Below are positions 1,361 through 39,294 of a stretch of DNA of 64,000 nt, piece after piece. A program made the position numbers and the translations under genes. This DNA comes from an uncultured Acidobacteriota bacterium. GTDB taxonomy: Bacteria > Acidobacteriota > Terriglobia > Acidiferrales > UBA7541. Location: assembly GCA_963698005.1 (NCBI GenBank), contig OY969113.1, forward strand, positions 1,209,669 through 1,273,668, read 5' to 3'. Position 1 is the stretch's first letter. Every line of letters begins with the position of its first letter. The notes beneath the pieces were generated by a model. The model was given only the letters and a program-made list of their open reading frames with translations. It did not search any database and was not told where the DNA came from.

Positions 1361-1954
1361 TTGATTCGAGTGACACGAGAAACGCATGAAGCGCCGGCTG
1401 GCGTGCAGGAACGGGCTACGCGCGCGGGCGGGGTGAATCGTTATGGCGAGCCGAACTTTCGCGTGGTGTGGGGCGGGTCGCGGCTGGCGTGGATTGGCGG
1501 GAGATGGACGGACCGCGATGCGCACGGCAATCAGGTTCGCGAAACAGTGGAGTTGAGACGTGTGCCGAAATACCTTCCAGAGGATCGCTGGCACATCGAG
1601 CGATGGATGCCGGCGGAGTCGTACGGCTCGCCGGAGCAATGGGTTGAGCAAACGACTGAGATCGAAGATGGAGTGCGAATCGCGGCGCTGGGGCCGTACC
1701 CGTCGCGCGGAGATTACGAGCATTGCTTTACGCTGGAGAGCGCGGGCGGAGAATTTATTCCGCTTACGCCGGCGGCGTGCGATTGGATCGTGCGGGCGAT
1801 CGAATGGTCGCGGAGGCAGGGGCACACGGAAATGCGCGGGGCCATCGCGGCGAGAGAAGCGCGTCGCGAGCGCCATATGGATCGCGGCATGGACGATATT
1901 CTCGACGACGCGGTGCCGGCGTTTCACGGGGAGGCGTTTGTGGTGAGCGCGTAA
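1361..1954 (+). CDS. hypothetical protein (first gene of the island, possibly phage-derived)
   Basis: 197-aa ORF with balanced composition (GEPNFRVVWGGSRLAWIGGRW..). No recognisable motif. Start uncertain (TTG 1361 or GTG 1370). Its last 16 codons are duplicated downstream at 2023-2070. Confidence 0.5.
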   Translation: MIRVTRETHEAPAGVQERATRAGGVNRYGEPNFRVVWGGSRLAWIGGRWTDRDAHGNQVRETVELRRVPKYLPEDRWHIERWMPAESYGSPEQWVEQTTEIEDGVRIAALGPYPSRGDYEHCFTLESAGGEFIPLTPAACDWIVRAIEWSRRQGHTEMRGAIAAREARRERHMDRGMDDILDDAVPAFHGEAFVVSA

Positions 1955-2070
1955 CTGCTCTGCCTTTACAACGGGTGCGGACCGAACGCGGCGGCAAGCC
2001 GCCGCACTCCAAATAGTTCGGCGACGTGGCACCGACGTTTCACGCGGAGGCATTTGTGGTGAGCGCGTAG
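1907..2070 (+). repeat. 48-nt imperfect direct repeat (1907-1954 and 2023-2070) flanking a REP element
   Basis: 41 of 48 positions identical by eye. Both copies end in a stop codon and encode D(A/V)(V/A)P(A/T)FH(G/A)EAFVVSA*. The 68-nt spacer contains REP type D copy 1. Confidence 0.85.
1988..2015 (+). repeat. REP-like element type D (hairpin + CACTCCAAA)
   Basis: gcggcggcaagccgccgc hairpin followed by actccaaata. Related copies at 8696, 30358 and 58430. Confidence 0.7.
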
Positions 2071-2153
2071 GAGAAATAGCCGACGGTGAACGAGATTGGT
2101 GGCAAAAAAGACGGACCTGAGCAATTAGCGCAGCATTGCCAAGCACTTGTTCC

Positions 2154-2179
2154 GGGCGCAGCATGCTGTGCCCCTACGG
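2154..2179 (+). repeat. REP element type A (GGGCGCAGCATGCTGYGCCC palindrome + CTACGG)
   Basis: 20-nt palindrome with one G-T wobble, followed by CTACGG. Read on the minus strand it is GTAG followed by the palindrome, the classical REP layout. Strand + here means hairpin then CTAC on the top strand. Confidence 0.9.
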
Positions 2180-2459: not shown

Positions 2460-3146
2460 TTGAACGGACTACTAGGGCAGGGAATTCATCGGGACATATT
2501 AGTGGACACGCGAGCGAAGGACGACACGGCGGCGACGGTGGCGATTGGCTCGGTGTCGGAACAGGACTGGTACGTGTCGCGCACGCATGGGGTTTACCAC
2601 ATTCCGGCTTGCGCGAAGGGGGAGGCGTACGCGCTGCTGTTGCTGACGTCGCGTGGGGATGCGCTGGATCTGGGCGACAACCGGCGCTTTCCATTTACGA
2701 TTTCGGCGCGAGAGATTGCCGTAGATCTGCTGCAGGACCTTCAGGACCACGGCGTGTTCGTTTGCGCGGGAGCGCGGCCGGCGGCTGAAGAATTGACCGC
2801 GGCACGGGAGCGGCGGGATGCGTTTTATCACAAGCTGATCGGAGAAGGGGACACCATGTGGGCGCGCGGGCACTCGTTTCGCGAGATTTCCGATTTGCAC
2901 CGGCGGGCGGCAATCAGCTTGGGCGTCGAACGCGAGTGGGCTTACGTTCCCATGCGCATGAATGATTGCCCTGCGTGCGGCGAGAAAGTGAAGCAGGGAG
3001 TGGCTGTGTGCAAGCATTGCGCCGCAATTTTGGACGCGGAAAAAGCTGCGAAGCACGGGCTTGGTGTCGGTGTGAAGAATCGGGGGGAACGAGCGGCGTC
3101 TGCTGGTCGCGGGAAATCGAACGAAGAGGCGCACGAACAAAGATAG
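2460..3146 (+). CDS. hypothetical protein with C-terminal zinc-ribbon (CPACG..CKHC)
   Basis: 228-aa ORF. TTG start preceded by AGAGGAAGG. CxxC-x11-CxxC near the C-terminus followed by a basic tail. No family recognised. Confidence 0.55.
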   Translation: MNGLLGQGIHRDILVDTRAKDDTAATVAIGSVSEQDWYVSRTHGVYHIPACAKGEAYALLLLTSRGDALDLGDNRRFPFTISAREIAVDLLQDLQDHGVFVCAGARPAAEELTAARERRDAFYHKLIGEGDTMWARGHSFREISDLHRRAAISLGVEREWAYVPMRMNDCPACGEKVKQGVAVCKHCAAILDAEKAAKHGLGVGVKNRGERAASAGRGKSNEEAHEQR

Positions 3147-3409: not shown

Positions 3410-3487
3410 GCGACGGCAGTTCTGTATAAATTGGCGGGATTGCGGTACAAAAGCGAGGGTACAAAGCAGCGACGAGGCAAAAACGAC

Positions 3488-6400
3488 ATGATACGAATCG
3501 GCAAAATTCGGCGGGCGGGCGATCGAGCGTTGCGCACGGCTTCACACTCTGCGCGAGCTGTTTGCCGGTGGCTAACGGGGCGGCCAATAGGACGGCCAAC
3601 GGTGAGCCTAGCGGGATGGCTGATGCTTGCTCTAATTGCGGCTCTCGTTGCGCCCTGCGCCAGCGCGCAGGGTTCGCGAAAGGACGATATCGTGTTCGGC
3701 CCGGAAGGGCATCCGATCGCAGGCGCAACGATCACCGTATGCCAGTCCACCGCCACTGGAACGCCGTGCTCGCCGCTGGCAACGCTCTTTACGGACGCGA
3801 CGCTCAGCGTGCCATCGCAAAATCCGTTTCAATCCGATGGTCTGGGCAATTATCACTTTTACGCTCCGGCGGGGCGCTATCTGGTTCAAATCACGGCGCC
3901 GCAAATCAATGGGACGCAAGTTTTTCCTGACGTAATTCTTCCCGCAGATCCATCTTCCACCGGAGTGGGGAACAATATTTCCGCGTTCGGGCTAACGCTG
4001 GGCGGAAATTTGAGCGTGGCTGGAAACGCGAATATCGCCGGAACGTTGACGACGACTAATTTTAATCCTGGGAGCTTCACGCCTTCATCGCTGAGCGTGC
4101 TGGGAAGTGAAACGGTGACCGGCCCGCGGCCGCGCATCGACGTGACTGCGTACGGCGCGAAAGGGGACGTGCTAACGGACGATACCGCGGCGATTCAGGC
4201 GGCCATCAATGCGGCTTGCACAAACGCAATCAACGGAATCAACGTGGTGCCCGAAATAGACTTCCCGTCGGGATATTATTCCATAAAACAAACGCAGCTC
4301 CCTTCCACAGCGCCAATATTTGAAATTCCATGTAGTTCCGTAACTTTCAAGGGAATGGGAAATAGCAGCACTTTGGCATTTTCGCGCGCTCCGATGACGA
4401 GGGTTGTTGTTGCGCCGGGTGCCAGCCCCAATAATGCGCCTGCGTTTGACTGCCGGTTTCCTGCTTGCAGTAACGCAGTTACTTTCCGCGATATCGAAAT
4501 TGACGGCTACAACAAGGCTCTTTGGTTTTATAAAGTGACGGACGCTAAATTAGAAAATGTGAACCTTCAAGTGCAGAACACGGGCCAGCCGGACAATAGC
4601 GCTCTGGAGCTTACCAACCTGTTTTGGTTTGAATGGCACGGCGGCGAATGCGCCAACTTGAGCTCGGGCATCGTGTCGTACTGCGTCTTGATGACAGGAG
4701 ATGTTCCGCTGGGGGGAGAAGCTCCGCTCGTGGGATTGGCGGAATTCGACAACCTGCAAGGAGCGAACGGCACATTTCATTACGACCAACGCGTGAATAC
4801 GAGCGGCCCCGGACCGGGGAACTGGGTATTCAGAGATATTCGAGGATTGGAAGGGAATTTTGGGCCGTTCCTTTTGATAACCAACAGCACCGGAAATCCA
4901 GGTTCCGCGGCGCTGCCGAGCATTACCAGCATAACTTTTGACAATGTGACTACGGCGGATTCAACCGGCCTTCCCGCCTTGATCGAGGTCAATTCCGCGG
5001 GGACGAGTATCGGCGGAGTGCTCATCGACAATTCGATCGGGGGGAATGGGGGTTCGCCTGCAATTCAAATTGACAATCCGAGCAGTTCGTCCGTTGTCGG
5101 CTGCAACATTCGAGCGGGCGGCAATTTTTCCTCTACCATTCTCGTTCAGGACAACAATGGTAATCCGATGTCGGGATGCTCGGCGGAAACCTGGAACGGG
5201 TTTGACTACTTTGTGCGCTCCGGAAACAGCGGCGGCGCTCCGGACCCGCGGCTGCGCAGCGATGTCGGCCAGTTCGGTGGATACGTCGGCGACGCGTTGC
5301 GAGCGACTTTTAATGGAAGCCGGTTCGCAGGGGTAAGCATCGATCCAGTGTTCGGCCTGCTGCTCAACGATGGAACCGATTTCGGTTACGGCGCGAGCAT
5401 CGCGGAGAATGCGGCAGGTTCGATAGATATTCAGTTTCCCAGGACATATCCACCGACAGGCGTCGCAGGTACAGCTACAACCGGGGGCTCGATCGCGGCG
5501 GGGACCTACTTCGCGACGATGTACTCGACCACGACGAATTGTAATACGACGGAGTCGGCGCCCTCGCAACAAAGCACCGGCGTGGCACTGAGCGGCACGA
5601 ACAACGCGATCACGTGGAACTGGACCGCACCACTTGCCGGGCTCGCGACGGTCGCCGGGTATTGCATAGCTACTTCCACGGTTCCGAATTTGAATAACGG
5701 GCAATGGGTGCCGCAGCAGAACAATTACATATTCATCTCCGGCGCGGGAACCACCAGCTTTACGATGACGACGCTGCCATCTTCCGGAGGGCAAGATTCG
5801 ATGATCAGCACGATGGTGGCCGCACACCGTTTCACGCCGAGCGCGCTGGGCATCAACACTACGAATCCGCAATTCAGTCTCGACGTGAATGGCACTGCCG
5901 CGGTGAACGCGTTGAACGGAGTGCAAAAGGCAGAGAGGTTTGCGGGTGCGGACGCGGCGGCGAAAATTACTGCGTGCCTTGCGGCCGCTTCGGCGTCCAC
6001 ATCCTCGTCGGTGTGCGACGCGCGCGGAATGACCGGAACGCTAACCGGCGCGCACCATGTAACTGTTCCAGCCGGCACGGTCTTGCTGTGGGGGCAGGGG
6101 CAACTGACCGTCACCGACACGACGACGAATGACGCAGTGGAATTGACGGGCGACGGCGCTTCTATCAAGGGCTATCAAGAGAGCGGTACCGGAACGATCG
6201 CCAATCCAGACACTTCGGGCTTCATTGCCTGCGGCAATGCAGGATGCACCACGGTCAAAAACCCAAATCAAGCGACGTCGAAGATAAATTTCGTGCACAT
6301 CGAAGGCATGGCACTTTTTGCCACCGGCGCGAATTCGAAAGTGATCGATATGACCAGCATCGGCCACTCGGATATAGAGAACAACAACATCACGCTCGGC

Positions 6401-8407
6401 ACGGGTGGAACTTCCTACGGAATTTACGGCAACACTTCGGTGGGAGACTTGGATGGCACGAATACTTTATTCAAGCACAACAATATGAATCCGCAGTCGG
6501 CCGGGGATACGTGCTTCTTTCTCGCAGGGATCTACAACGCAATCGTGCTGGAACAAAACGCCTGCATTCTGCCGCCCGCTAGCTCGACCGGCTACGTGCT
6601 TTCGAAAGACAGCAACGGAAATTATCCGAACAACGACGAGATTTACGGCAACGATTGCGAAAGCTCCTCGGCAGCGTTCGGGCAGATTTGCTACAACATC
6701 ATCGGGGCGACCAGCGTCACATTCGGTCCCAACAATCGCTGCGAAGATATTTACAACTGCATTCAATTTCCGTCGGACGGCTCGGCCATCGGCATTCATC
6801 TACTTGATCCGTATCTTTCCATCACGAATACTACGCAAATCAAGCCGAACGAACCTGCGACTGCGATGATTGCGATCGATAACAACGGGCACAACTGGAC
6901 GCCCTCGATGCACTTTGGGCAAAACGATCTTGCCAGCACGAACCTACTGGCGAACGCAGGCTTTGAGGGATGGAGCGGCGGGACCACTTTATTAGCGTGG
7001 GGCGGGGCTAGCGGCACAAACATCAATCAAGCCGCTTCCGGAATATATGCGCGGCAATTGAGTTCCGCTGCGCCGATCGATGGAAATACGCAAGGCAGCT
7101 ACAACGTGAAAGTGGGCGACGGCGCAACCGCGGGGCTAGGGGTGAACTCGCAATGCATTCAGGTGGATCCCGCCGCGGAATATACCTTTGGCGTGCGCGT
7201 GGCAGCTGGCTCGACGTCCGCCAATTTCCGGCCGGGCTTTCGTTTTTACTACGACCCAAACTGCACCGAAGCGGACAAGATCACGAACATCGCCACCAAT
7301 GCGCGCGTCCTCGCCCCTGCGAGTTACGTGGACAATGGCGGCAATGGCGGCAACTGGCAAAGCACGAACGCTTCGCTGACTTATAACAACGGCATTACTT
7401 GCAACTGCAACGTGACCGGCGCGGATTGGCAAGTGGCTACGGCCAATACGTGGACTGTGAATCGCAACTACGCCGTGATTTTCCGCGTGCCAAACGCTTT
7501 CAGCGTCTCGAGTACCGTGGCGCATTCGATGCGGATTTTTCTGCTTGAGAATTCGGCTTCGTCCAGCAATTTCGTTTATTTTGACGACGCATTTCTGGCT
7601 AAGGGACCCATGCCTTCCGAGCCGCGGTTTGCGCCGCTTGCCGACAGCGGCAACGGCGGCGCCGACACGGTGTACTCAAACCTGAGCGTGCTGGGAACCG
7701 TGAACGGTACAAGCCAGAACGCCGCCAGCGCGGGCGGCCAATTCCTGGGCGCTGCCAGCGGCACTGCGCCGAGCTTGATCGCACAGTTGAGCACGGGACA
7801 AACCGGGCATATGTTCGATCTGGACCCGAGTAGCTCGACGACTCCCATTTCGTTTTTCGATAACTCCGGCAATTTTCTTGCGCGCAACGATCTGAATGCG
7901 GTGAGCCCACTGGGCGCCGCCACGGTTTCAATGTCGAATGCGAGCGACGGATTAGCGATCGCTCCCGCTTCCGGCACTACCGGCGGAAATGCACTGAAAG
8001 TGATGGCGCCGGGATCGTCCGCCACGATCAACGCGTCCATTTCTTATGCGGGGAACGTGCAGGGAATTTTTCTGCTGGCAAATCGAGGGAGCTCGATCGG
8101 CACGTCGAACATCACGCTATCGAGCGGGTGGGGAAGCTCGGCGACGGTCACGGCCAGCGGGACGAGCCAGCGGTTTACCGCAACCGTAACCGCGAGCGGA
8201 ACGACCGCCGCGAATCCGACGATTGCGATTAATTTCACGAATACGTGGCCGCTCACGCCGATTTTCATTTGCAAAATGGTGGGAGGAACCGGGGCGGTGG
8301 CTAACGTCACCGGAGAGAACACCGCAACCACGGGAAGCATGACGCTGACGTTCAATGCCACGCCTGCCAGCGGGTCGACGTACATTTTTAATTGCCACGG
8401 GGAATAG
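3488..8407 (+). CDS. giant secreted tail-fibre/tailspike-like protein: signal peptide, CarboxypepD_reg-like domain, beta-helix (Pectate_lyase_3-like) regions, CBM_4_9-like jelly roll
   Basis: Uninterrupted ORF to 8407. Start uncertain (ATG 3431, ATG 3488 or GTG about 3601). Signal-like LMLALIAALVAPCASA-QG. IDVTAYGAKGDVLTDDTAAIQAAINAA matches the Pectate_lyase_3/tailspike N-cap motif. NLLANAGFEGW...VYFDDAFL is CBM_4_9-like (6941-7609). Confidence 0.75.
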   Translation: MIRIGKIRRAGDRALRTASHSARAVCRWLTGRPIGRPTVSLAGWLMLALIAALVAPCASAQGSRKDDIVFGPEGHPIAGATITVCQSTATGTPCSPLATLFTDATLSVPSQNPFQSDGLGNYHFYAPAGRYLVQITAPQINGTQVFPDVILPADPSSTGVGNNISAFGLTLGGNLSVAGNANIAGTLTTTNFNPGSFTPSSLSVLGSETVTGPRPRIDVTAYGAKGDVLTDDTAAIQAAINAACTNAINGINVVPEIDFPSGYYSIKQTQLPSTAPIFEIPCSSVTFKGMGNSSTLAFSRAPMTRVVVAPGASPNNAPAFDCRFPACSNAVTFRDIEIDGYNKALWFYKVTDAKLENVNLQVQNTGQPDNSALELTNLFWFEWHGGECANLSSGIVSYCVLMTGDVPLGGEAPLVGLAEFDNLQGANGTFHYDQRVNTSGPGPGNWVFRDIRGLEGNFGPFLLITNSTGNPGSAALPSITSITFDNVTTADSTGLPALIEVNSAGTSIGGVLIDNSIGGNGGSPAIQIDNPSSSSVVGCNIRAGGNFSSTILVQDNNGNPMSGCSAETWNGFDYFVRSGNSGGAPDPRLRSDVGQFGGYVGDALRATFNGSRFAGVSIDPVFGLLLNDGTDFGYGASIAENAAGSIDIQFPRTYPPTGVAGTATTGGSIAAGTYFATMYSTTTNCNTTESAPSQQSTGVALSGTNNAITWNWTAPLAGLATVAGYCIATSTVPNLNNGQWVPQQNNYIFISGAGTTSFTMTTLPSSGGQDSMISTMVAAHRFTPSALGINTTNPQFSLDVNGTAAVNALNGVQKAERFAGADAAAKITACLAAASASTSSSVCDARGMTGTLTGAHHVTVPAGTVLLWGQGQLTVTDTTTNDAVELTGDGASIKGYQESGTGTIANPDTSGFIACGNAGCTTVKNPNQATSKINFVHIEGMALFATGANSKVIDMTSIGHSDIENNNITLGTGGTSYGIYGNTSVGDLDGTNTLFKHNNMNPQSAGDTCFFLAGIYNAIVLEQNACILPPASSTGYVLSKDSNGNYPNNDEIYGNDCESSSAAFGQICYNIIGATSVTFGPNNRCEDIYNCIQFPSDGSAIGIHLLDPYLSITNTTQIKPNEPATAMIAIDNNGHNWTPSMHFGQNDLASTNLLANAGFEGWSGGTTLLAWGGASGTNINQAASGIYARQLSSAAPIDGNTQGSYNVKVGDGATAGLGVNSQCIQVDPAAEYTFGVRVAAGSTSANFRPGFRFYYDPNCTEADKITNIATNARVLAPASYVDNGGNGGNWQSTNASLTYNNGITCNCNVTGADWQVATANTWTVNRNYAVIFRVPNAFSVSSTVAHSMRIFLLENSASSSNFVYFDDAFLAKGPMPSEPRFAPLADSGNGGADTVYSNLSVLGTVNGTSQNAASAGGQFLGAASGTAPSLIAQLSTGQTGHMFDLDPSSSTTPISFFDNSGNFLARNDLNAVSPLGAATVSMSNASDGLAIAPASGTTGGNALKVMAPGSSATINASISYAGNVQGIFLLANRGSSIGTSNITLSSGWGSSATVTASGTSQRFTATVTASGTTAANPTIAINFTNTWPLTPIFICKMVGGTGAVANVTGENTATTGSMTLTFNATPASGSTYIFNCHGE

Positions 8408-8870: not shown

Positions 8871-9587
8871 ATGCCCGTCGTCCCGACAACCGCATATTCG
8901 CAGGCGGAAGATGCGCTGAATCTGGCGCGCGCGCTGGTGAACGATTCGGCGGGCGTGGTCTTTACCGACACGCTGCTGATGCCGCTGCTGAACTCTGCGT
9001 ATCGCGGCTTGCAGCGCGAGCTGGCCGAAAATGGTGTCAGCGTGTTGGTGGAGCAGCAGGACATCGAGCTCGACGTCAACTCGGACACGGGCGCGACGAA
9101 CCTGGAAATTAGCGACGTCTCCAGCCCGCAACTACCCGCTGATTGTTTGATGCCGCACATGTTGTGGGAGCGGGCTACGCCGAACACGACGGACACCTTC
9201 GTCCCCATGGAGAAATTCATGAGCGGCGGAGGGATGCTGAACCTGCAGCCCAGCAGCTATCTGCGTCTTTGGGAATGGCGCGAGGATAAAATAAATCTGA
9301 TCGGGGCAACGCAATCCATCACTGTGCGCGTGCGTTACGAAAAGATTCTGCCGCTGCTCGTTCTTGGAACTGATCCGGTGCAAATTCGCAGCGCTACGGA
9401 CGCGTTGGGATTTGCAACTGCGGCGCTGGCTGCTCGTTCCCGCGGGGCACGCGCGCTTGCCGCGGACTTGCTCGGTTCGGCGCAAACTGCAGCGGAAAAC
9501 CTGATCAATCGGTACGTGCGTCCGGAACAGACCAAGGGAAGGCGCCGCAAGCCGTACAGTTATCACCGGCGGATAATTTATTTGTGA
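8871..9587 (+). CDS. phage adaptor-like protein (candidate T7 gp11 / tail tubular protein A analogue)
   Basis: 238-aa ORF. ATG 5 nt after GGAGG. Size and N-terminal helical pattern (AEDALNLARALVND...LLNSAYRGLQRELAENG) resemble my recollection of T7 gp11 (AELSAVNDILASIG...ARRILNKINRQIQSRGW). The similarity is by eye only. Confidence 0.45.
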   Translation: MPVVPTTAYSQAEDALNLARALVNDSAGVVFTDTLLMPLLNSAYRGLQRELAENGVSVLVEQQDIELDVNSDTGATNLEISDVSSPQLPADCLMPHMLWERATPNTTDTFVPMEKFMSGGGMLNLQPSSYLRLWEWREDKINLIGATQSITVRVRYEKILPLLVLGTDPVQIRSATDALGFATAALAARSRGARALAADLLGSAQTAAENLINRYVRPEQTKGRRRKPYSYHRRIIYL

Positions 9588-21705: not shown

Positions 21706-21749
21706 AAAGTCAAAAGAGCCGGCGGGACGCCGGCGCTACGAAAACCGGG
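21706..21749 (+). repeat. REP element type B
   Basis: aaagtcaaaagagccggcgggacgccggcgctacgaaaaccggg. Confidence 0.9.
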
Positions 21750-21773
21750 CGGGGTGTGGCACACTATGCGGCC

Positions 21774-22568: not shown

Positions 22569-22832
22569 TTGGCCAAAATAATTCGCATTGTCGATGATCC
22601 TTATTGGTGGACTGTGGCCCTCTCGTCCCTGGTGCAACTGGTGATGTTCCTCCGCTGGATCTACCGGCGAATTCGTAACGACGAAATGATGCGCGCGTTC
22701 GTGGAGGACATGGCCAAGATTCACTTGCCGCACACGTACGCGCTGCTGGAAAAAATTTGCGCCCGGCAGGGAATCGACGCGTCGGAGCGGCCGTCAATCA
22801 ATTGGATCGATTTGCACGGCCCGCGGCATTGA
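22569..22832 (+). CDS. small hypothetical membrane protein
   Basis: 87-aa ORF with TTG start and no clear RBS. One TM segment (WWTVALSSLVQLVMFLRWIY). Confidence 0.35.
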   Translation: MAKIIRIVDDPYWWTVALSSLVQLVMFLRWIYRRIRNDEMMRAFVEDMAKIHLPHTYALLEKICARQGIDASERPSINWIDLHGPRH

Positions 22833-22864: not shown

Positions 22865-24076
22865 ATGATGAAAACTACTCGCATACTCGCGACGATCCTA
22901 CTGGCGACTTCTTGGCTCGCGCTGACTGCGCCTGGCGCATTCGCGCAAGGGTCGCAGCGCGTGAATGTGGTGCAGGGGGACACGGGGCAAGCTATCGCTG
23001 GCGCAAACATTTGGGTTTGCACCGGCATGGTGCTGCCCGCTTACACGAGCTCTCCCGCTTGCACGCCTGCCGCGGCGATTTATTCGAATCCCACGCTGAC
23101 CACGCCTATCACGCAGCCGCTCGTTTCCGACGGGCTCGGCAACTACAGCTATTTCGGCGTCGCTGGAACGTACACGGAAGTGATCACCGGGCCGATGATC
23201 GCGGGATACACTTCGACCATCGTTCTGCCGTGCGCGCCGAGTTCGCCTACGGCGGGATGCGGAGGCAGCGCTGGAAATCCCGCGTCGCCGAGCGGCTCAA
23301 TTCAGTTCAACAATATCGGAGCATTCAGCGCATCGATTTTGAGCGAGGATTCCGGCGCAACCACGATCACCGACACCGGCAACATGAGCGTGGCAGGCTC
23401 GCGGCTCACGGTAAATACGTCGAGCAACGGCGGATTCAATCTCAACGTGAACGGCACGGGAAATTTTCTCGGCTTGCTGACGACTCCGGGCGGTTTCTCC
23501 GCGAACGCCGAATCGCCGAACAGCGCGTTCAGCGCGCCGACAAAACTTTTTTTCATGGCGGCGGGGTGCAACAACGTGACGGCAGGGAACGGCTGGCAGA
23601 TTGGGACCGCCAACGCTCCCGCGCCAGCTTGCCAGGGAACGCACACGCGAAAAGGCGTGCTGCAGTTTGCGCGCGGCAACGTGGCGTACATCGAGCTTGA
23701 ATTGCCCGTGGATTGGAATTTTGGCGTGAACGTGGATTTGAAGATCGCGTTCACCACGACGGATACGACGAACGGTCACTTCACCGCGTGGAGCGTGCAA
23801 ACCGGATGCAATTCGCTGACCGGGACGGCGACCGACGATCCCGTTCTGAACGCGGCGCAAACGGTTTCGTCCACCGTTGGCAGCACGGCGGTGTCCGGCG
23901 CGGAATATCTTACGCTGCTTACCGCGTTGAACACGGCCGGCTGCTCGGCAGGGAACAACTTCGTGCTCGCGATCACGCGAAATAATTCGGGGTCAGACAC
24001 GAATACTGACACCGCCGTCGCGGCGAAGTGGGCTGAGTTGACGTTCGGCCGAACCATTAACTCCACGAACCGGTGA
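22865..24076 (+). CDS. secreted tail-fibre-like protein sharing its N-terminal domain with the 3488-8407 protein
   Basis: ATG 22865. Signal peptide MMKTTRILATILLATSWLALTAPGAFA-QG. CarboxypepD_reg-like domain is homologous by eye to 3683-3943 (..SDGLGNY.(F/Y)....G.Y...IT.P...). SIQFNNIGAFS and GNMSVAGSRLTVN are fibre-like segments. Confidence 0.7.
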   Translation: MMKTTRILATILLATSWLALTAPGAFAQGSQRVNVVQGDTGQAIAGANIWVCTGMVLPAYTSSPACTPAAAIYSNPTLTTPITQPLVSDGLGNYSYFGVAGTYTEVITGPMIAGYTSTIVLPCAPSSPTAGCGGSAGNPASPSGSIQFNNIGAFSASILSEDSGATTITDTGNMSVAGSRLTVNTSSNGGFNLNVNGTGNFLGLLTTPGGFSANAESPNSAFSAPTKLFFMAAGCNNVTAGNGWQIGTANAPAPACQGTHTRKGVLQFARGNVAYIELELPVDWNFGVNVDLKIAFTTTDTTNGHFTAWSVQTGCNSLTGTATDDPVLNAAQTVSSTVGSTAVSGAEYLTLLTALNTAGCSAGNNFVLAITRNNSGSDTNTDTAVAAKWAELTFGRTINSTNR

Positions 24077-24178: not shown

Positions 24179-24246
24179 AACCGCCCACCACAGTTCCAGA
24201 ACGACACCGCGAGAGTGTCGCACTTTGAATGTTCCGGGGAGGCGCA

Positions 24247-24573
24247 ATGCAATCCTGGCAGGAATTCCTCGATTCGCTGGCTACCAAGGGCGGGAATCTA
24301 CTTGTCCTGTTCGCGTGCTTCGCGGGACTTCTCAGCCTGCTGATTCACGTTTTGCATCACGGCGACACGGGGAACGTGAGCATGGTCGTGGTCTCGACAT
24401 TCTCCGGATTTTCCGGGGCATTGATGGCGACCCTGACCGGAAAGGACAGTAAGGAGCAGAGCGAAAACATTCCCGGTGTGAAGATTCCAAGCAACACCGG
24501 AGCATCTGCAATTCCAGAATCGACCGCCACGCCTGCCAGCGGCACGCCGAAGATCGATGGGCCTGTTTCGTAA
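24247..24573 (+). CDS. holin-like small membrane protein
   Basis: ATG 24247 after GGGGAGG. Two TM segments (NLLVLFACFAGLLSLLIHVL, VSMVVVSTFSGFSGALMATL) and a hydrophilic tail. Its stop overlaps the start of the hydrolase gene (TAATG). Confidence 0.55.
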   Translation: MQSWQEFLDSLATKGGNLLVLFACFAGLLSLLIHVLHHGDTGNVSMVVVSTFSGFSGALMATLTGKDSKEQSENIPGVKIPSNTGASAIPESTATPASGTPKIDGPVS

Positions 24574-25025
24574 TGCAAGCTAAGGCGTACAGCGAGCTAA
24601 GCCCGCTCGACCTGATGAAGCTGTGCGTGTGGCGCGAAGCGCGCGGCGAAGGAATTCTGGGCAAGCGCGGCGTCGCGCAGGTGATTCAGAATCGCGCGGA
24701 CGACCCTTCGTGGTGGGGACACGACATTCGCTCTGTGATTCTGAAGCCCTGGCAATTTTCGAGCTTCAACGCGGCAGACCCCAATTCCGGAAAATGGCCG
24801 GCGGAAGGGGATCCCTCGTTCCAGGATTGCGCGGATGTTTGCGAAGCGGTGGCAACAGGAAAGCATGAGGACATCACCAGCGGCGCGACTTCCTATTTCG
24901 ACATTTCCATTCCGCCGCCGTCGTGGGCTGCGAACGGAAGCAACGTCCTCACGCTAGCTGTGGGGCGTCTGCGCTTCTACAAACTCGCGCCCGTGATGGT
25001 GAGCGACATCGATCTCGGCATGTAG
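24573..25025 (+). CDS. SleB/Hydrolase_2-type cell wall hydrolase (endolysin-like), no signal peptide
   Basis: CVWREARGEGILGKRGVAQVIQNRADD...ILKPWQFSSFN matches the cell-wall hydrolase SleB-family core. Confidence 0.75.
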   Translation: MQAKAYSELSPLDLMKLCVWREARGEGILGKRGVAQVIQNRADDPSWWGHDIRSVILKPWQFSSFNAADPNSGKWPAEGDPSFQDCADVCEAVATGKHEDITSGATSYFDISIPPPSWAANGSNVLTLAVGRLRFYKLAPVMVSDIDLGM

Positions 25026-25167
25026 ATTGTCCCAAAGGAGTGACACATCGTTCCGATGTAGCGAAAGAACTAAAAGCGCAGCGGGTGTACAATTTTGTCT
25101 CCTGGATTTGCACCGGGCAGGTTCCCAGCCAGGCCCGCGGCAGGAAGTTTCGTTCCGGAGGGCTCAA

Positions 25168-26052
25168 TTGGAAACCGCGGTTGGAGTATTTAGTTCGCGA
25201 GAACGTGCGGAAAACGCGCTGGGATATTTGCTCGAGAACGGCGTGCCGGAAGACGCGATCGTGTATTTGACGCGATCTGAAAGCGAGGCCGTCTCTTTGG
25301 GGAAGAAGATTGGGGGCTTTGCAGGAGGTATCGCGGGCGGGGCTGTTGGTTTCGGAGCCGGATTGGCGGCGGCTTCATGGGCGTTGATCCCCGGAGCAGG
25401 AGAAGTTTTCGCACTGGGCGCGGGCGCTGCGGCATTGCTCGGGCTGTTCGGGCAGAAGGCCGGAGCTGCGGCCGGTGCGAAACTGAGTCGGAACGTTGAC
25501 GCCGATGTTTTGAGAGATGAGCAGTCGGCTGAAGATGCGGAAGTGTTTCTGAATATTCTGAAAGAAGGCCGGTCGCTGATCGTGGTTAGAACGGAATCGC
25601 ACGAAACCGCGAGAGTGGCCTGCGTGATACTCGACCGCATGGGAATCACCGGCACCACCCCTGCAGAGGTTGATGCGGATAAAATGCGGGCTACGACTCG
25701 GCCGACGGGCAAAGGCATCACTGTGCTGGAAATACACGGAAGGAACATGCAGGGCGAAGGCAACATCGTACTGCGCGACGCAGTCCAGGATTTGCTGGCG
25801 CGGGGAAATACAAAAGTAATTTTGAACTTGAGCCAAGTGGAACACATCGATAGCGCAGGCATTGGCGAGCTGGTGCGAAGTCATACGTCGCTGCGCAAGG
25901 CGGGCGGGCAGTTGAAGCTGTTGAATCCCAGCGCCAAAATTAGAGAGATGCTTCAAATGAGCATGCTGCACAAAGTGTTCGACTTGCAGAACGATGAAGC
26001 CGGCGCGATCAAATCTTTTGGCAGATCGTCTAAATCAGGAGCGTCTGCGTAA
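25168..26052 (+). CDS. YflT-like / glycine-zipper / STAS-domain protein (anti-sigma-factor-antagonist-like C-terminus)
   Basis: TTG 25168 is 5 nt after GGAGGG. VGVFSSRERAENALGYLLENGVPEDAIVYL is general-stress 17M-like. Then a Gly/Ala-rich membrane-like stretch. C-terminal VLEIHGRNMQGEG...VILNLSQVEHIDSAGIGELV...GGQLKLLNP is a STAS/SpoIIAA fold. Confidence 0.65.
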   Translation: METAVGVFSSRERAENALGYLLENGVPEDAIVYLTRSESEAVSLGKKIGGFAGGIAGGAVGFGAGLAAASWALIPGAGEVFALGAGAAALLGLFGQKAGAAAGAKLSRNVDADVLRDEQSAEDAEVFLNILKEGRSLIVVRTESHETARVACVILDRMGITGTTPAEVDADKMRATTRPTGKGITVLEIHGRNMQGEGNIVLRDAVQDLLARGNTKVILNLSQVEHIDSAGIGELVRSHTSLRKAGGQLKLLNPSAKIREMLQMSMLHKVFDLQNDEAGAIKSFGRSSKSGASA

Positions 26053-26241
26053 ACTGCCAACGCTGTGTCGTGGCAAACTCCCGCTGTTGATCCTTCGGAT
26101 TCGAATTGTGATATTCCTTCGCGTTCTCCACTGTCGGCAGCTGCTTTCCATTATGAGCCCGATGTAAGCGATTTTCCGAGAGCGAGTCGTTTTATAATTC
26201 CGGGACTGCGTTAGTTATGACGGAGTGATAAGCACAATCAA

Positions 26242-28849
26242 ATGATAAAAAGACTACTACTAGCCACCGCACTGACGTTGACCGTCTCATTTGCGGCATT
26301 TGCACAGGGCGGGGCGTGCCCGACGGCGGCGCAGTACATCAATCCGGCGCTAAATGGCGTGGCGGGGCCGCTGGTTACACTGGCGTCGCTCGGAGTGACG
26401 AGATGCTATTACATCGCAGCGAACGGCTCGGATTCTAATTCCGGCATTTGCGAGGTAGTCACCGGCACTAGCCCCTGCACCACTGGAAACGGCCCCTGGC
26501 AGCATGATCCTTATATGCCGAACTGCACGGCGACGTGCGCGACAGTGCAGGCGGCATTGACTACGACTTCCGCATTCGGGTTTATTCATCGCGGCGGCGA
26601 CACTTGGCACTGGTTTACCGGAAGCCCGCAGATTGGTTTGCCGGTGAACTGGCCGAACGGGACGGGGAGCCAAGTCAACGGGTGGGACTGGATAAAGAGC
26701 GGGACGGCTTCAACGCCGTTTTACATCGGCATCGACTACGGCTGGTCGGTGAGCAGCCCATGGACGCGGCCGATCATCAATAACGACAATCCGGTGAACC
26801 CGACGCCGACCTATGGGCCGGTCGCGGGGCTTCCGCAGTTTTATTACAACACCACGACGGATCCAATCACGCTGAACGGGATCGTCGCGAGCTGCACCTA
26901 CCCGCAAGGCGCTTTGAACGATCTGACTTTGGACAGCGTGCAGTACGTGATCGTGGATGGCTTCGAATTCACCGGCATGTGTTTTGACGACACCGGAAAG
27001 ACGCACCAGTATTTGCAGCACGCCGGGCCGCCGCCGCAGTCGTCCGAACTTTCCGATTTTTACAATTTGTACATGCACGGCTATACCCACAAGCCGCTGG
27101 TAGAGCACGGACTGATCAACGCCAACGCTTCGATTGCTTCGGGGGGAACGGGGTACACCACGAGCAGCCAGGTAGCCGTGAATGGTGGGACGCTCTTGCC
27201 GATCGTTCAAATTACTTCGGTCAGTGGCGGAGTGGTGACCGGGTTCAACGTGCTTTACGGCGGCACTGGCGTGCCCATCGGCACCGACAGCACGACAACG
27301 GTGAGCGGCTCCGGTTCGGGATTTACTTTGAGCGTGTCGGCTCAGGCGAACATCGTCAGTGATGCCGGGGTAATGATGCAGGGCTGCTCGAACGCTTGCA
27401 CCGGAAACCAGATTATGTATTTCATAGTTCGACGGCTCGGATTCAGACGACACGGTCGCGAGTTCGCTCGGCATAGACACAAGTTCCGCGATCCTGGCCT
27501 ATAGCTTTTTCAATCACCTAGGCGGAACCGTCATTCTGGACAACTGCCACATAGCCCACGACAATGTGTGGCAGTACATCAACAATTCGACGGACTCAGT
27601 TTCCCACGGGGACGTGTACTTCTGCGAGGGGGAATTCAACGGCGACAACTTTTTTTATAACAACCTCTTTCGGTACATCGGCACCGAGTACGGCATCGGG
27701 CTTTCGACGGTCTTTTGGTTCAACCAGACCAACCCCGGCCACACGGACTACGTTTTCAATAACGTCCAGCACGACCTAAATCAGTGCAGCAATTTCAATA
27801 ATTTCTCGGCTGAGGCATCCGGGGTTCAGCACGCCATTTACAACAATACGATGCAGTCGATGGATGCCGTGCCCGGAAACAACTGCCCGGTTTGGACGAA
27901 CGGAAGTGGGGGTTTCCTCGGAACCATCACCGACGCAAACAACCATTACATTACGGGGACGAACACCGGGACCACGTGCGCTACAGCCTACCACGATGCG
28001 ACACACGTGAACGGCGGCGGGGCGTGCCCGGATACTTTTATGACCCAGGCGGTGGCGAACGCCGCGGGGTACACGAGCGCGAACGATTACGCGCCGACTT
28101 CCTCGAGCAGCCCGACGGTGGGAGCTGGCGCGAACTTTACGAGCATCAGCGGACCGTTTGGCCCGGCGTTTTTGCAGACCACTACGAACGGATGCGTCGA
28201 GAGTTTCGTCAACACGGGATTCGGCAGCCCGACGATGATCTGCCCGAACCTGACGCCGACAAACAGGCCGACGAGCGGCGCATGCCCGGGCGTTGGATGC
28301 TGGAACTCGGGAGCGTTTGGACTCGTCTCGCCCACCGTGGCGCTGGCACCCAATCCTTACAGTTTTGCAGCCACGGCCTTGGGCAATAACAGCAGCGATA
28401 GTCCGGTGACTTTCACACTAACAAACAACACTGCCGTAACGATTACCGGCGTCACAATCTCTTTTACCGGCGCGAACCCCGGCGACTTCAGCAAAACCAC
28501 TTCGTGTGTCACAACGCTTGCCAGCAGCGCAAGCTGCCAGATTTTCGTGACTTTCACGCCGACAGCTATAGGGTCGCGCACAGCTACACTGAGCGTCTCT
28601 GATTCTGACGCAAGCAGCCCACAAACTTCCAGCCTTTCCGGCACGGCAATTCCTTTGGTGATTAAACCGTCTCCCGCGAATCCCGTCACGTTCGGAGTTG
28701 TGGTGACGGACCTTTCCATTCCATCCACGGTGAAAAATGAAAAACACAGCGAGAATTTTTCTGCTTACAATTTTGGCCACGTCGCTTTGGTTGGCTTCCT
28801 GCACCAAGACCGTGCCCGTAATACCGCCAGCGCCTCCGCCGGTCAATAA
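26242..28849 (+). pseudogene. secreted right-handed beta-helix protein with choice-of-anchor-D-like C-terminal domain, interrupted by a +1 frameshift near 27424-27430
   Basis: ORF 26242-27504 (signal peptide MIKRLLLATALTLTVSFAAFA-QG) turns into Arg-rich nonsense after ..CTGNQIMYF. Frame +1 opens at 27428 with protein-like FDGSDSDDTVASSLGIDTSS..NCHIAHDNVWQYINN and continues into ORF 27566-28849. C-terminal FTLTNNTAVTITGVTISFTGANPGDF..CQIFVTFTP. Confidence 0.7.
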
Positions 28850-29201
28850 AGACTGGCTCATCACCGCCAGCTTCAGTTACAACTTCACGAATTACATGCA
28901 GTGCAGTGCGAGCGTCACCTCCGGCTGCATCACGGGGTTTACCTGGGGCTATCTGAATGCGCAGGGTGCGCAAGTGCCGCTGAAAACCAGCCCGGTCGCG
29001 GTGTGCTCCGGCGCGTCACAGCCACAAGCTTGCACCGACACCGCCAACAGCCAGTTGCCGATCGGCTCGGACGCTTTCACCATCGTAGTGAATTACATCG
29101 ACTCAGCAGGGAAGTCACAAGTCACTTCACCCGTGACATCCGCGTCCCCTACAGTAATCGCCGCCGGTCTGCCGCAGGGTTTCACTATCGCCACTCAGTA
29201 G
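28737..29201 (+). CDS. lipoprotein, hypothetical
   Basis: MKNTARIFLLTILATSLWLASC has a lipobox (LASC). Overlaps the 3' end of the preceding ORF by 113 nt. Confidence 0.6.
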   Translation: MKNTARIFLLTILATSLWLASCTKTVPVIPPAPPPVNKDWLITASFSYNFTNYMQCSASVTSGCITGFTWGYLNAQGAQVPLKTSPVAVCSGASQPQACTDTANSQLPIGSDAFTIVVNYIDSAGKSQVTSPVTSASPTVIAAGLPQGFTIATQ

Positions 29202-29376
29202 CAACGACACGTCTCGTCGTCTTTCAATTGGACGCATGCAGAGCACCTCCATGCGGCGGACTACACCTTTGTACCCCCCCGCCTTCGCGCCAGATCCTGC
29301 ACCGTTCCCAAACGTAGCTAAAGCTGTTCGCTCGATACAACAAATTAATCCTCACTTCACTCAAGGAGAAATCGAA

Positions 29377-30078
29377 ATGCACAATTTAAGCAAGGCGGCA
29401 CACGCAGTATTGATCGGAATTCTTTGCGGCACACTGACGATAGGCACCGTAACGCTCGGCGGCTGCAATTCAACTCAAGTGGAAGCGGACATTCAGAAAG
29501 TAATTGCGTTGCTCCCGACAGCCGTTCAGATCGCCGGCAGCATCCTCAACATCGTCGCAGCAGCGGAAGGGAAGTCGGCTCCCAGCGCAGCCGTCCTCGA
29601 TACGGTAAAAAATGCGTCCGGGCAAGTTCAGGCGGACCTCACACTCGCTAGTAGCCTGGTAGCGCAGTATCAAACCGATCTCGCCTCGGCTCCGGCCGGC
29701 GTCCTGGGGCAAATCGATGCAGCTGTCGCAGACGCGCAGCAAAATATCGGCGCGATTCTTACCGCCGTTCACGTCGCAAACGCGACAGTCATTGCAGCGG
29801 TAAATTCCGCAATAGCCAGCGTGCAGACCGTTATCCTTGCGCTCATTGCTGTGTTGCCCACGCCCGCGTCTGCCGCACTTTTTCCCAAGCTTACTGCTTC
29901 GCTACACACCGCCGGAATCCAGCCGGGAAGTGTGAAGGCTGGCGTTCCCAGTCCCCATGCTTTCGCCAAATCGTTCAACAACGACGCTCGCATCGTGGCG
30001 GCCCAGCAAGCCTATCCGAACGCGCAGATTAAAGTTCCCGTCCCGCACGCCCGCATTTTTGGCGTGCCCCTGCCGTAA
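29377..30078 (+). CDS. lipoprotein, Ala-rich helical, hypothetical
   Basis: ATG 29377 after AAGGAG. MHNLSKAAHAVLIGILCGTLTIGTVTLGGC has a lipobox (LGGC). Confidence 0.6.
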   Translation: MHNLSKAAHAVLIGILCGTLTIGTVTLGGCNSTQVEADIQKVIALLPTAVQIAGSILNIVAAAEGKSAPSAAVLDTVKNASGQVQADLTLASSLVAQYQTDLASAPAGVLGQIDAAVADAQQNIGAILTAVHVANATVIAAVNSAIASVQTVILALIAVLPTPASAALFPKLTASLHTAGIQPGSVKAGVPSPHAFAKSFNNDARIVAAQQAYPNAQIKVPVPHARIFGVPLP

Positions 30079-39282: not shown

Positions 39283-39294
39283 GCTTCCCCTATT

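Follow-up and report, generated by a model that had tools for sequence, protein, structure and literature searches.

The window, which is the whole stretch of DNA analysed here, comprises 64,000 nt from an uncultured Acidobacteriota bacterium (Acidiferrales; UBA7541) and spans positions 1,209,669 to 1,273,668, forward strand, of contig OY969113.1 in assembly GCA_963698005.1. The phage-like genes at this locus are real and encode a podovirus-type tail, fibres and lysis proteins. The locus matches its host in GC content and codon usage, and the window is without a compositional island. The module genes are:

1361-1954, +, A185, conserved orphan protein; first gene past the capsid gene in compact relatives
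2460-3146, +, B_Zn, conserved protein with a C-terminal zinc ribbon (weak zinc-ribbon Pfam matches)
3431-8407 (start probably 3488), +, long fibre/tailspike-like protein (Pfam PF12708, E 1.8e-6)
8871-9587, +, D238, probable head-to-tail adaptor of the SU10/T7 gp11 class (relatives' Pfam and weak fold matches)
12316-12669, +, F117, conserved 117-aa module protein
12880-15267, +, G795, tail nozzle of the T7 gp12/P22 gp10/SU10 class (AF2 model and Foldseek)
17203-18220, +, H338, N-terminal domain joined by a Gly/Ser linker to a bacterial-intein-like (Hint) domain; frameshifted here
18395-18823, +, I142, poorly conserved candidate internal/ejection protein, with a REP copy inside at 18545-18569
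18835-19236, +, J133, conserved candidate internal/ejection protein
21008-21562, +, K184, conserved, Gln-rich, with a Gly-rich C-terminus
22569-22829, +, L88, small and conserved, with a single hydrophobic helix; holin-like candidate
22865-24076, +, M439, second, shorter fibre-like protein; N-terminal domain paralogous to that of 3431-8407
24229-25025, +, lysis pair: holin-like protein (24229-24573) and SleB-type cell-wall hydrolase (24573-25025)

When the AlphaFold model of the 795-aa G795 (pLDDT 89.1, pTM 0.86) was compared with the PDB by Foldseek, every one of the top 31 matches was a nozzle or tail-hub protein of a podovirus (E 9e-20 to 2e-8), with a target TM reaching 0.76 and just 7-11% identity to solved nozzles in the alignments. 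Sequence searches of the PDB with this protein gave no match, and its PHROG match is to 'virion structural protein' (E 7e-7). These comparisons establish the predicted fold as that of a podovirus nozzle and bear out the gp12/nozzle-like call of a first-pass annotation of this DNA. G795 has over 1300 homologs 790-800 aa long (69-97% identity), near-full-length nozzle proteins that occur on contigs of up to 3.1 Mb, and a dN/dS of 0.03-0.11. The adaptor call made for 8871-9587 is plausible: relatives ~39-45% identical to D238 carry a precomputed PF24175 (SU10_adaptor) domain, one of them at about 41%, and the top eight Foldseek matches of a low-confidence model are ~200-230 aa chains from podophage portal-tail complexes, with weak scores. 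D238 itself, as encoded in the window, had no hmmscan match; its dN/dS is 0.008-0.075. An SU10-type adaptor is the probable identity of this 238-aa protein.

The long fibre protein has a signal-peptide-like N-terminus, a conserved N-terminal domain that recurs in M439 and in the second fibre of the relative L001, a pectate-lyase-like beta-helix and a variable C-terminus, and its gene has a dN/dS of about 0.1. All fibre homologs carry signal-peptide-like N-termini; such secretion-type ends are odd for cytoplasmic virion assembly and count against the explanation we favour below. In the lysis pair, whose ORFs share one base as TAATG, the first protein has two hydrophobic helices and a weak PHROG holin match, and the second is a Hydrolase_2 (SleB-type) protein (Pfam E 1e-13; PHROG endolysin E 3e-16). 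The pair stands in place of an SLT gene found in more distant relatives, and L88 is considered holin-like because it lies directly 5′ of the SLT lytic transglycosylase gene in L001.

Among the remaining module proteins, A185 has homologs at 200 loci in species-representative genomes and is found together with the module at identities as low as about 30% (dN/dS 0.08-0.11), and B_Zn is syntenic across all relatives. K184 has a dN/dS of 0.04-0.12 and F117 one of 0.03-0.13; a longer F117 ORF from 12043 was rejected as an artefact of translated REP copies. The Hint region of H338 bears the motifs G|C...TPHH...THN, and its profile matched 2lwy_A, a BIL domain, best in the PDB (E 0.011, full domain length). 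One extra base near 17360 breaks the gene in the window, a frameshift unique to this sequence; the 338-aa gene (start 17203) is intact in L132, L003, L004 and L001.

Host genes and REP hairpins are wedged between the module genes:

60-827, +, trmJ (SpoU methylase), inserted host gene (Pfam)
ending at 1261, +, DUF1772/anthrone-oxygenase-like inserted host gene after trmJ (Pfam)
9622-11907, −, secreted NHL/beta-propeller and Ig-like protein, host-type insert between D238 and F117 (Pfam)
15433-17137, +, inserted cytochrome set: NapC/NirT-type multihaem cytochrome, cNMP-binding membrane protein, cytochrome c (Pfam)
19256-20780, −, inserted GAF-domain gene (19256-19747) and secreted NIPSNAP-like gene (Pfam)
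21600-22499, +, inserted ICMT/PEMT-family membrane methyltransferase (Pfam)
2145-2353, +, REP-type hairpin spacer, for example GGCGCAGCATGCTGYGCCCCTACGG
3288, 8636, 12762, 18545 and 21628, further copies of the GGCGCAGCATGCTGYGCCCCTACGG-type REP
3380, 12121, 12259 and 24149, second hairpin family
2247, 8524 and 21706, third hairpin family
1984, 8693 and 19834, fourth hairpin family

Relatives carry different subsets of these inserts. The NHL gene is clade-shared at the D238/F117 junction (71 loci) and missing from divergent phage-like contigs; a GAF gene, at the junction it occupies in the window, and the ICMT/PEMT gene are present in L004 and absent in L001. The cytochrome set was in none of the fetched relatives, and in L132, L003, L004 and L001 the nozzle gene is directly followed by the 338-aa gene. 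A PilZ-domain response regulator lies between the portal-size and scaffold-size genes at 63 loci, host-type inserts across loci further include RidA, NHL, Hcp, rhodanese, Usp, trmJ and cytochromes, and an Hcp gene often adjoins the element in relatives. The four GC-rich hairpin families, each followed by CTAC (GTAG-type), amount to ~17 copies between 2 and 25 kb; for the two families traced over the whole window, every copy is on the + strand, with none from 30 to 64 kb. The motif occupies the same spacers in L053 and L132, and other positions, on the minus strand, in L086, L099 and L117. Downstream, 25027-30078 encodes STAS, ASH/Ig-like and unknown proteins found only in close relatives, and housekeeping functions (DsbA-like, NadE, Dxr, RseP, CdsA, UppS) are encoded at 31-44 kb.

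The observations of the first-pass annotation are confirmed in part. The ORFs it claimed at 8871-9587, 12880-15267, 3431/3488-8407, 22865-24076 and 21008-21562 are all present, the TAATG-joined holin-like/SleB-type pair is supported by Pfam, PHROG and hydrophobic helices, and spacers are indeed filled with host-type REP hairpins. Of the cellular genes it placed amid the phage-like ones, the cytochrome, GAF and ICMT genes stand by Pfam, whereas a GNAT domain turned up in none of the scanned ORFs. Its Hint-domain protein at 17366-18220 does contain a Hint domain but is the 3′ part of the 338-aa gene rather than a free-standing one, and the island that it extended to 30078 has a conserved core that stops at 25025, the remainder being common to close relatives only.

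In relatives, head and packaging genes lie directly upstream of the tail genes, in the same orientation. A major capsid gene precedes A185 in 66 of the 74 related species with at least 3 kb of DNA upstream of A185 (60 of these capsid genes are intact), and the gap between the two ranges from 54 nt to 9 kb in a continuous series of sizes. Scaffold-size and portal-size genes lie 5′ of the capsid gene, as does a large terminase gene where the DNA extends far enough. The terminase is recognised by PHROG (E 1e-37 to 6e-40) and Pfam (Terminase_6N/Terminase_3), and the major head protein by PHROG (E 6e-10), with no homolog of the capsid protein among cultured phages; portal and scaffold are candidate assignments made by size and position only. 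Most other species have A185 directly after the capsid gene, and the nearest relatives (L052, L054, L055, L132) have the order capsid, Usp, trmJ, A185, the capsid gene lying ~0.8 kb before trmJ in the closest ones. From this order, the head genes of the present genome are very probably located ~0.8 kb before position 1, and trmJ and the DUF1772 gene would be host inserts between the off-window capsid gene and the first tail-module gene. A search of the window for homologs of the relatives' terminase, portal-size, scaffold-size and capsid genes found none, in keeping with the earlier report; its term 'capsid-less', however, describes a window-edge artefact, since the window begins at trmJ and the relatives' head genes are immediately upstream. 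Those same genes rule out the option of a tail-only, tailocin-like structure. Of the three options in the earlier report, the second, a GTA-like element with head genes elsewhere, comes closest, except that 'elsewhere' is immediately upstream.

We found 200 relatives among one-genome-per-species contigs and 350 metagenome contigs bearing the terminase. Core genes have a dN/dS of 0.008-0.15, against 0.05-0.09 for trmJ, at similar dS (the genes used for the dS comparison, trmJ and NHL, are both embedded in the element); judged from these ratios, purifying selection on the core is very strong. In 20 independent contigs from a metagenome scan lgt adjoins the cluster, in the order histidine kinase (−), lgt (−), ..., terminase, and two IMG/VR contigs share this lgt-side order. 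Lgt and terminase identity matrices correlate moderately in a contig set that includes near-duplicates (Mantel r 0.52, reached by 0 of 5000 permutations). The terminase diverges much faster than Lgt in some contig pairs, and between L137 and L140 the identity is 88% for the capsid, 80% for the portal-size protein and 64% for Lgt. These comparisons suggest some co-divergence of the element with lgt.

No integrase domain was found in window ORFs scanned up to 44 kb, no tRNA was found in the window, and domain searches found no integrase or replication domains in the flanks of the element. Several proteins of 357-415 aa without domain matches lie between lgt and the terminase, and a novel recombinase or regulator could be hidden there. 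A second clade of relatives is more compact, with few inserts, and in divergent contigs the terminase is preceded by many small ORFs; both look more like ordinary (pro)phages, and IMG/VR lists related contigs as viral. The earlier interpretation of a podovirus tail in an old, REP-colonised locus, with cellular genes between, no recognisable integrase, no tRNA and dN/dS far below 1, survives, and with it the view that this is not a recent prophage. When relatives were examined for ordinary-prophage signs, they had head and packaging genes but not integrase, att sites or a patchy distribution.

The window content is best explained as the tail, ejection and lysis part of a podovirus-derived head-tail-lysis gene set. 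On the sequence evidence, it probably belongs to a particle-forming element that has been domesticated and is under selection, its head genes lying immediately 5′ of the window, and it is neither a tail-only device nor a decaying prophage. A domesticated particle with a non-transfer role, be it PBSX-like killing, defence decoy, protein delivery or polysaccharide degradation, would draw on the same conservation evidence, and on the pectate-lyase-like depolymerase domain of the long fibres, their secretion-type N-termini and the often adjacent Hcp gene. We regard it as unlikely, because conservation is among the highest for the terminase, portal-size and capsid proteins, which argues that selection still acts on DNA packaging, and a search of the core for a toxin/effector domain found none.

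An active temperate podophage family, site-specific beside lgt, rich in morons and spread through Acidiferrales by infection, would account for the full structural and lysis gene set, the IMG/VR entries, the small ORFs of divergent relatives, the compact clade with few inserts, the unannotated 357-415 aa genes and the modular fibre/lysis end, swapped between SLT and Hydrolase_2. It is nevertheless quite improbable: integrase, repressor and replication domains were found on neither side, nor was a tRNA; inserts are host-type, often on the opposite strand and lineage-specific, with gaps of 54 nt to 9 kb or more; Lgt and terminase show some co-divergence; capsid and portal-size proteins are better conserved than Lgt; dS resembles that of the embedded trmJ and NHL genes; and REPs of host-genome type occupy the spacers. 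A decaying remnant, in which tail and lysis genes outlasted the head genes, fits the headless window, the frameshifted H338 and the invasion by cellular genes and REPs, but is very improbable and already contradicted by dN/dS of 0.01-0.15, the constant length of over 1300 intact nozzle genes, head genes upstream in 66/74 related species and in all nearest relatives extending far enough upstream, and an H338 frameshift found in the window sequence alone.

The favoured domesticated element resembles RcGTA of Rhodobacter capsulatus and CcGTA of Caulobacter, in which phage-derived genes for head, tail and lysis likewise stand without integrase or replication functions, are fixed in the chromosome, pass vertically through a large clade, evolve under purifying selection and have host-like GC and codon usage. 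RcGTA-type elements are siphovirus-like, compact (~15 kb head-tail cluster) and uninterrupted, whereas the present element is podovirus-like (adaptor and nozzle; no tape measure, tube or sheath), exceeds 35 kb and has host inserts at many junctions, often on the opposite strand. Podovirus-shaped GTAs can exist, since Dd1 of Desulfovibrio desulfuricans is a short-tailed GTA particle that transfers host DNA; to our knowledge its genes are undefined, and the likeness is one of particle shape in a host of a different phylum. With the tails of SU10 (a kuravirus), T7 (gp11/gp12) and P22 (gp4/gp10) the element shares the nozzle fold, an adaptor that in relatives is SU10_adaptor, and the order capsid, adaptor, nozzle, internal proteins, lysis; unlike these phages, it has no T7-type RNA polymerase or replication module, and has the extra conserved orphans A185, the zinc-ribbon protein, F117 and H338 with its Hint domain. 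PBSX-type defective prophages and phage-like bacteriocins of Bacillus are also chromosomally fixed, non-infectious particle gene sets whose heads package host DNA, but the PBSX tail is contractile, PBSX occurs in few species only, and a killing function is not indicated for the present element. Tailocins (R-/F-type pyocins) are likewise domesticated tail genes with lysis cassettes; they are headless and long-tail-derived, and a tailocin-like identity is rejected because relatives encode a head and packaging machinery, and the tail here is of the short nozzle kind.

We propose that a podovirus-derived set became fixed in the chromosome of the ancestor of a large Candidatus Acidiferrales (Acidobacteriota) clade. 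Its full order, the 5′ part being taken from relatives, would be two small genes, large terminase, portal-size, scaffold-size, major capsid, A185, zinc-ribbon protein, fibre, adaptor, F117, nozzle, H338 (with a putatively self-cleaving Hint domain), J133, K184, L88 and wall hydrolase, without recognisable integrase, replication or lysogeny genes. The set would have gathered host genes at many junctions while keeping its structural genes intact under purifying selection (H338 being frameshifted here). Expressed by the host from their scattered positions, these genes would yield short-tailed particles filled with DNA; the holin-like protein and the hydrolase would release them, and the host would benefit, most likely through GTA-style gene transfer; taken alone, that transfer function is a plausible but tentative suggestion. 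The main reading is that this gene set has held one chromosomal site across hundreds of species of soil Acidobacteria, and the element is a candidate for a new kind of GTA-like particle, podovirus-derived and inherited vertically.

The run of phage-like open reading frames on the plus strand at 1.3-25 kb that the first-pass annotation had described is present, and what the window holds is the tail, ejection and lysis genes of a larger set, derived from a podovirus, that also comprises head genes. The cellular genes of the window are as follows.

Cellular genes of the window (those from 60 to 26052 assigned by Pfam)
60-1261: SpoU/trmJ and a DUF1772-type gene
9622-11907, minus strand: secreted NHL/Ig-like protein
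15433-17137: NapC/NirT cytochrome, cNMP-binding protein and cytochrome c
19256-20780, minus strand: GAF and NIPSNAP-like genes
21600-22499: ICMT/PEMT methyltransferase
25027-26052: STAS protein
31-44 kb: core housekeeping DNA (DsbA-like, NadE, isocitrate/isopropylmalate dehydrogenase, RseP, Dxr, CdsA, UppS)

An interspersed GNAT gene that had also been proposed could not be confirmed, as no GNAT domain was found among the ORFs scanned. A conserved uppS-cdsA-dxr-rseP block lies at 37948-44242, about 13 kb 3′ of the last conserved core gene (ending at 25025), and the 3′ side of the island is therefore ordinary chromosome. GC content is flat at 0.56-0.60 over all 64 kb; thus, there is no compositional island in the window. 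Among the phage-like candidates, matches to Pfam and PHROGs families are rare: A185 (the 185-aa product of 1361-1954), F117 (12316-12669), J133 (18835-19236), K184 (21008-21562), L88 (22569-22829), the Hint protein H338 (17203-18220) and the protein families c52, c45, c18 and c14 match neither. The window contains no tRNA, no detectable integrase domain and no known RNA in Rfam. At its 5′ side, the final 52 nt of the A185 gene (1902-1953) recur 116 nt downstream (2018-2069) with 87% identity, the two copies being separated by a REP-like hairpin (1984-2013); this looks like the footprint of an insertion or duplication event.

The 795-aa protein (12880-15267) had been proposed to be a gp12/nozzle-like protein. 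Its ORF (12757-15267) matches a PHROG ‘virion structural protein’ (E 7e-7), and the protein has no sequence match in the PDB or among cultured phages. A model built from a diverse alignment reached a pLDDT of 89.1 and a pTM of 0.86, and the proposal is borne out because the top 31 Foldseek matches in the PDB are all podovirus nozzle or tail-hub proteins. Among them are those of cyanophage A4 (E 9e-20), SU10, Sf6, Pa223 (TM 0.76 on target), P22 gp10 (TM 0.74) and the phicrAss001 muzzle. T7 gp12 chains 9jyz_P, 7ey7_s and 7boy_s also match (E 1e-14 to 2e-11, probability 1.00); the model is closer to cyanophage A4, SU10, Pa223 and P22 gp10 than to T7 gp12. Neither the single-subunit RNA polymerase nor the T7-type replication domains of the Autographivirales (T7 group) were found in the window or the scanned relatives.

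The 238-aa protein (8871-9587) is probably the adaptor. Its model, made from a shallow alignment, is poor (pLDDT 60.6), and its top eight Foldseek matches are podophage portal-tail chains of about 200-230 aa (from GP4, VP1, Shigella B2, KHP30, Carin-1, Pa223 and SU10) with weak scores (E 2e-3 to 0.09, TM 0.25-0.39). Relatives that are 39-45% identical to it carry a precomputed PF24175 SU10_adaptor assignment; our own hmmscan did not reproduce a PF24175 match.

The ORF at 3431-8407 encodes a pectate-lyase-like beta-helix (E 1.8e-6). When fibre N-termini were compared (window 3431-3680 and, for the second fibre, 22865-22960; loci L001, L019, L023, L026, L091 and L173 of relatives), all homologs, divergent phage-like contigs included, were seen to start with a signal-peptide-like hydrophobic segment. 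In most of them this segment ends A/S/G-Q-G, and what reads by eye as a carboxypeptidase-regulatory-like domain follows. Virion proteins that assemble in the cytoplasm do not usually start like this. At the distal end of the island, 24573-25025 encodes a Hydrolase_2/SleB-type enzyme (E 1e-13) that also matches a PHROG endolysin, and it overlaps by one base with a gene for a protein with two hydrophobic helices (24229-24573). In distant relatives the 88-aa protein is followed by an SLT lytic transglycosylase (L001:15211-15642); in place of this enzyme, the window’s lineage has the second fibre, the two-helix protein and the SleB-type hydrolase (24229-25025).

More than 1300 nozzle homologs of 790-800 aa were found, nearly all in Candidatus Acidiferrales MAGs (Acidobacteriota, Terriglobia), with 69-97% identity among the matches listed and 75-97% for the best 120 of the first search. 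They lie on contigs of up to 3.1 Mb, and contigs with A185 relatives reach 5.4 Mb. The family comprises 1860 clusters at 50% clustering; searching again with a diverse nozzle profile recovered that close clade once more and brought no further diversity. Gene order is kept among relatives. The compact cluster of L001 (78% identity) consists of genes for 185 aa, a zinc-ribbon protein, the fibre, 238 aa, an NHL protein (minus strand), 117, 794, 335, 130, 133, 184 and 88 aa and the SLT enzyme, and is free of the cytochrome, GAF and ICMT inserts; L004 (92%) has the window’s order with partly different inserts. Two contigs of one MAG (JBOGMW01; L075 and L103) have one cluster copy each, with A185 69-70% identical to that of the window, which means that one genome has two copies or that the bin is mixed.

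We surveyed the upstream DNA of 80 loci centred on A185, out of 200 matching loci from species-representative genomes, with ORF calling weighted on GC3 for this GC-rich DNA. Directly upstream of A185 and in the same orientation are capsid, scaffold-size and portal-size genes, the latter two named by size and position.

Head and packaging genes upstream of A185 in relatives
Major capsid, about 420 aa: PHROG ‘major head protein’, E 6e-10
Scaffold-size gene, about 417 aa: identity by position
Portal-size gene, about 806 aa: identity by position
Large terminase, 558-577 aa, in loci reaching far enough: PHROG E 1e-37 to 6e-40; Pfam Terminase_6N/Terminase_3

The terminase is about 30% identical to 849 cultured-phage terminases; the capsid protein has no sequence match among cultured phages, and searches of PDB sequences with the adaptor, portal-size and capsid proteins gave nothing useful. 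A capsid gene is present in 66 of the 74 loci having at least 3 kb upstream (60 intact), and the gap between it and A185 ranges continuously from 54 nt to 9 kb. In the closest relatives (L052, L053, L054, L055 and L132; L052 has 88-98% nucleotide identity to the window and L132 an identical adaptor protein) the order is capsid, Usp, trmJ, a variable gene, A185. Because the window starts at trmJ, head genes are expected about 0.8 kb before position 1. The first-pass annotation had read the island as a capsid-less podovirus-type tail and lysis set in an old locus that did not look like a recent prophage. The podovirus-type tail and the age of the locus stand, but the missing capsid is an artefact of the window’s edge, as the head and packaging genes lie upstream in relatives. 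A tailocin or other tail-only structure was rejected on the terminase and capsid genes in the same cluster of relatives; no sheath, tube or tape-measure matches were found in the window with Pfam or PHROGs.

Five lines of evidence point to long vertical residence under selection. Compared with six relatives by NG86, the structural genes overall have dN/dS of 0.008-0.15, indicating purifying selection (adaptor 0.008-0.075, nozzle 0.026-0.11, F117 0.03-0.13, K184 0.04-0.12, fibre about 0.1); trmJ has 0.05-0.09, with dS similar to that of the element genes. It had been suggested that the long ORFs be checked for dN/dS near 1, and the values are far below 1.

The locus is fixed across a clade: the element occurs in about 200 species, and genomes have nested insertions in common. 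Upstream of the terminase, a PAS histidine kinase gene and lgt, both on the minus strand, are present in two IMG/VR contigs whose elements are diverged, and in 20 metagenome contigs with enough upstream DNA the order is kinase, lgt, terminase, portal-size gene, response regulator with PilZ (minus strand), scaffold-size gene, capsid. In one subclade, lgt is absent within 7-8 kb. Pairwise identities of Lgt and terminase are correlated (Mantel r 0.52, reached by 0 of 5000 permutations, with some near-duplicates included); between L137 and L140, the capsid is 88% and the portal-size protein 80% identical, and the adjacent housekeeping Lgt only 64%. Pfam detected no domains for integration, replication or repression in the upstream flank, in the interior, or downstream in relatives and in the window; among the flank proteins several of 357-415 aa are orphans, as are many proteins of the core.

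Genes of host type sit at the junctions of the cluster, many on the opposite strand, and several of the insertions are common to dozens of species.

Host-type genes inserted in relatives
Portal-size/scaffold-size junction, minus strand: response regulator with PilZ, 63 loci (e.g. L091:6318-7166, L030:5120-5998)
Scaffold-size/capsid junction: secreted 241-aa protein
Capsid/A185 junction: Usp, trmJ, Hcp, rhodanese and others
Adaptor/F117 junction: NHL protein, 71 loci
Inserted host-type gene: RidA, 33 loci
Inserted host-type gene: PEP-CTERM protein

The PilZ response regulator may be a regulator linked to c-di-GMP that the element has captured or that controls the element. In 27 loci a gene of the T6SS Hcp family lies shortly before A185, on the opposite strand (e.g. 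L114:9366-9935(-)). Codon usage of the element is host-like (RSCU r 0.84) and its GC is uniform, a sign of amelioration. The cluster spans more than 35 kb, and in some lineages more than 45 kb; this spread and the interleaving are suggestive, and only suggestive, of particles that would carry random host DNA and be unable to transmit their full own gene set.

The spacers carry REP hairpins. Four GC-rich hairpin families are each followed by CTAC, the REP signature GTAG when read on the opposite strand, and about 17 copies lie within 2-25 kb, where chance predicts 0. Two of the families were searched over the whole window; every copy is on the plus strand and none lies in 30-64 kb. The motif occurs in the corresponding spacers of the close relatives L053 and L132, and in L086, L099 and L117, genomes of the order that are less closely related, it occurs elsewhere and on the minus strand; these are therefore host-genome REPs and not parts of the element. 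False N-terminal extensions of ORFs at 12043 (F117) and 12757 (nozzle) are translated REP copies. The copies at 12098-12298 and 12762-12796 are fused in frame to ORFs, and one (18545-18569) is internal to the ORF of the poorly conserved I142 (18395-18823).

The Hint protein recognized at first pass is real, but its bounds were wrong: it belongs to a 338-aa gene, H338, that begins at 17203 and is split by one extra base near 17360. L132, L003, L004 and L001 lack the extra base and have the gene intact, and the part downstream of the frameshift still has dN/dS of 0.07-0.15; the frameshift reflects either an error of assembly or a mutation that arose very recently. The last ~140 residues contain the motifs G|C...TPHH...THN, invariant in eight homologs, and thus have the N-terminal Cys after a cleavage site, the TxxH block and the C-terminal HN of a Hint domain. 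Pfam gave no match for this region; against the PDB, the best match of its profile is the BIL domain 2lwy_A, over the full length and at an E-value of only 0.011. The three-gene cytochrome/cNMP-binding insertion at the nozzle-H338 junction (15268-17202) adjoins the frameshift, and it is missing in all four relatives examined there, the near-identical L132 included.

Taken together, we think it probable that this is a domesticated, selected, particle-forming element whose head genes lie just upstream of the window. The break in H338 was counted against domestication. That the domesticated particle has a role other than DNA transfer is rather unlikely. We give a slimmer chance to a family of active, site-specific temperate phages. 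IMG/VR catalogues related contigs as viral; in the divergent loci L154, L171 and L173, numerous small ORFs precede the terminase or the gene order is rearranged, as could be the case in genuine phages; and Ca. Acidiferrum has a second large chromosomal clade in which the cluster is compact and inserts are few. In that clade (L268 and L269) the adaptor is about 42% identical, the nozzle is about 980 aa and the module is slightly reordered; in L269 a PAS histidine kinase lies directly 3′ of the nozzle gene. An ordinary decaying prophage is highly improbable and was rejected because dN/dS is far below 1 and the genes are intact; the locus also has no integrase or tRNA and is widely and consistently present. 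The elements of a Sphagnum ‘core virome’ paper are different, being P2/Mu-like and of other families.

Phage-derived head, tail and lysis genes on a chromosome, as in a GTA or viriform, are what we find, with the head genes seen only in relatives. The podovirus-derived gene set has passed vertically, next to lgt, through a large clade of Acidiferrales, and strong selection has kept it intact as host genes and REPs were gradually interleaved. For this domesticated element, a GTA-like viriform is the most likely mechanism by inference: the host would control the production and lytic release of short-tailed, DNA-filled particles.

To our knowledge, genetically defined GTAs have so far been long-tailed (siphovirus-like), compact and confined to few lineages, and we found no GTA or element like this described in the literature on Acidobacteriota. 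We tentatively propose, at somewhat less than even chances, that an abundant order of Acidobacteria from soil and peat keeps a GTA of podovirus origin, or another DNA-packaging particle that serves the host. No short-tailed viriform would have been defined genetically before it, and its structural genes would remain functional despite host genes lodged between almost all of them, among these a conserved response regulator with PilZ within the head module. Such interleaving would have a parallel in the dispersed viral genes of wasps that carry polydnaviruses. If true, a short-tailed particle set strongly conserved across an order would widen the known routes of phage domestication, and would account for the repeated listing of such loci as ‘viruses’ in IMG/VR and in soil viromes. 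The stepwise insertion of host genes among intact structural genes is an unusual natural experiment on how host regulation takes over a viral operon. Because the hosts are some of the most abundant uncultured bacteria of soil and peat, the particles would, if this is right, constitute a mechanism of gene exchange in those communities.
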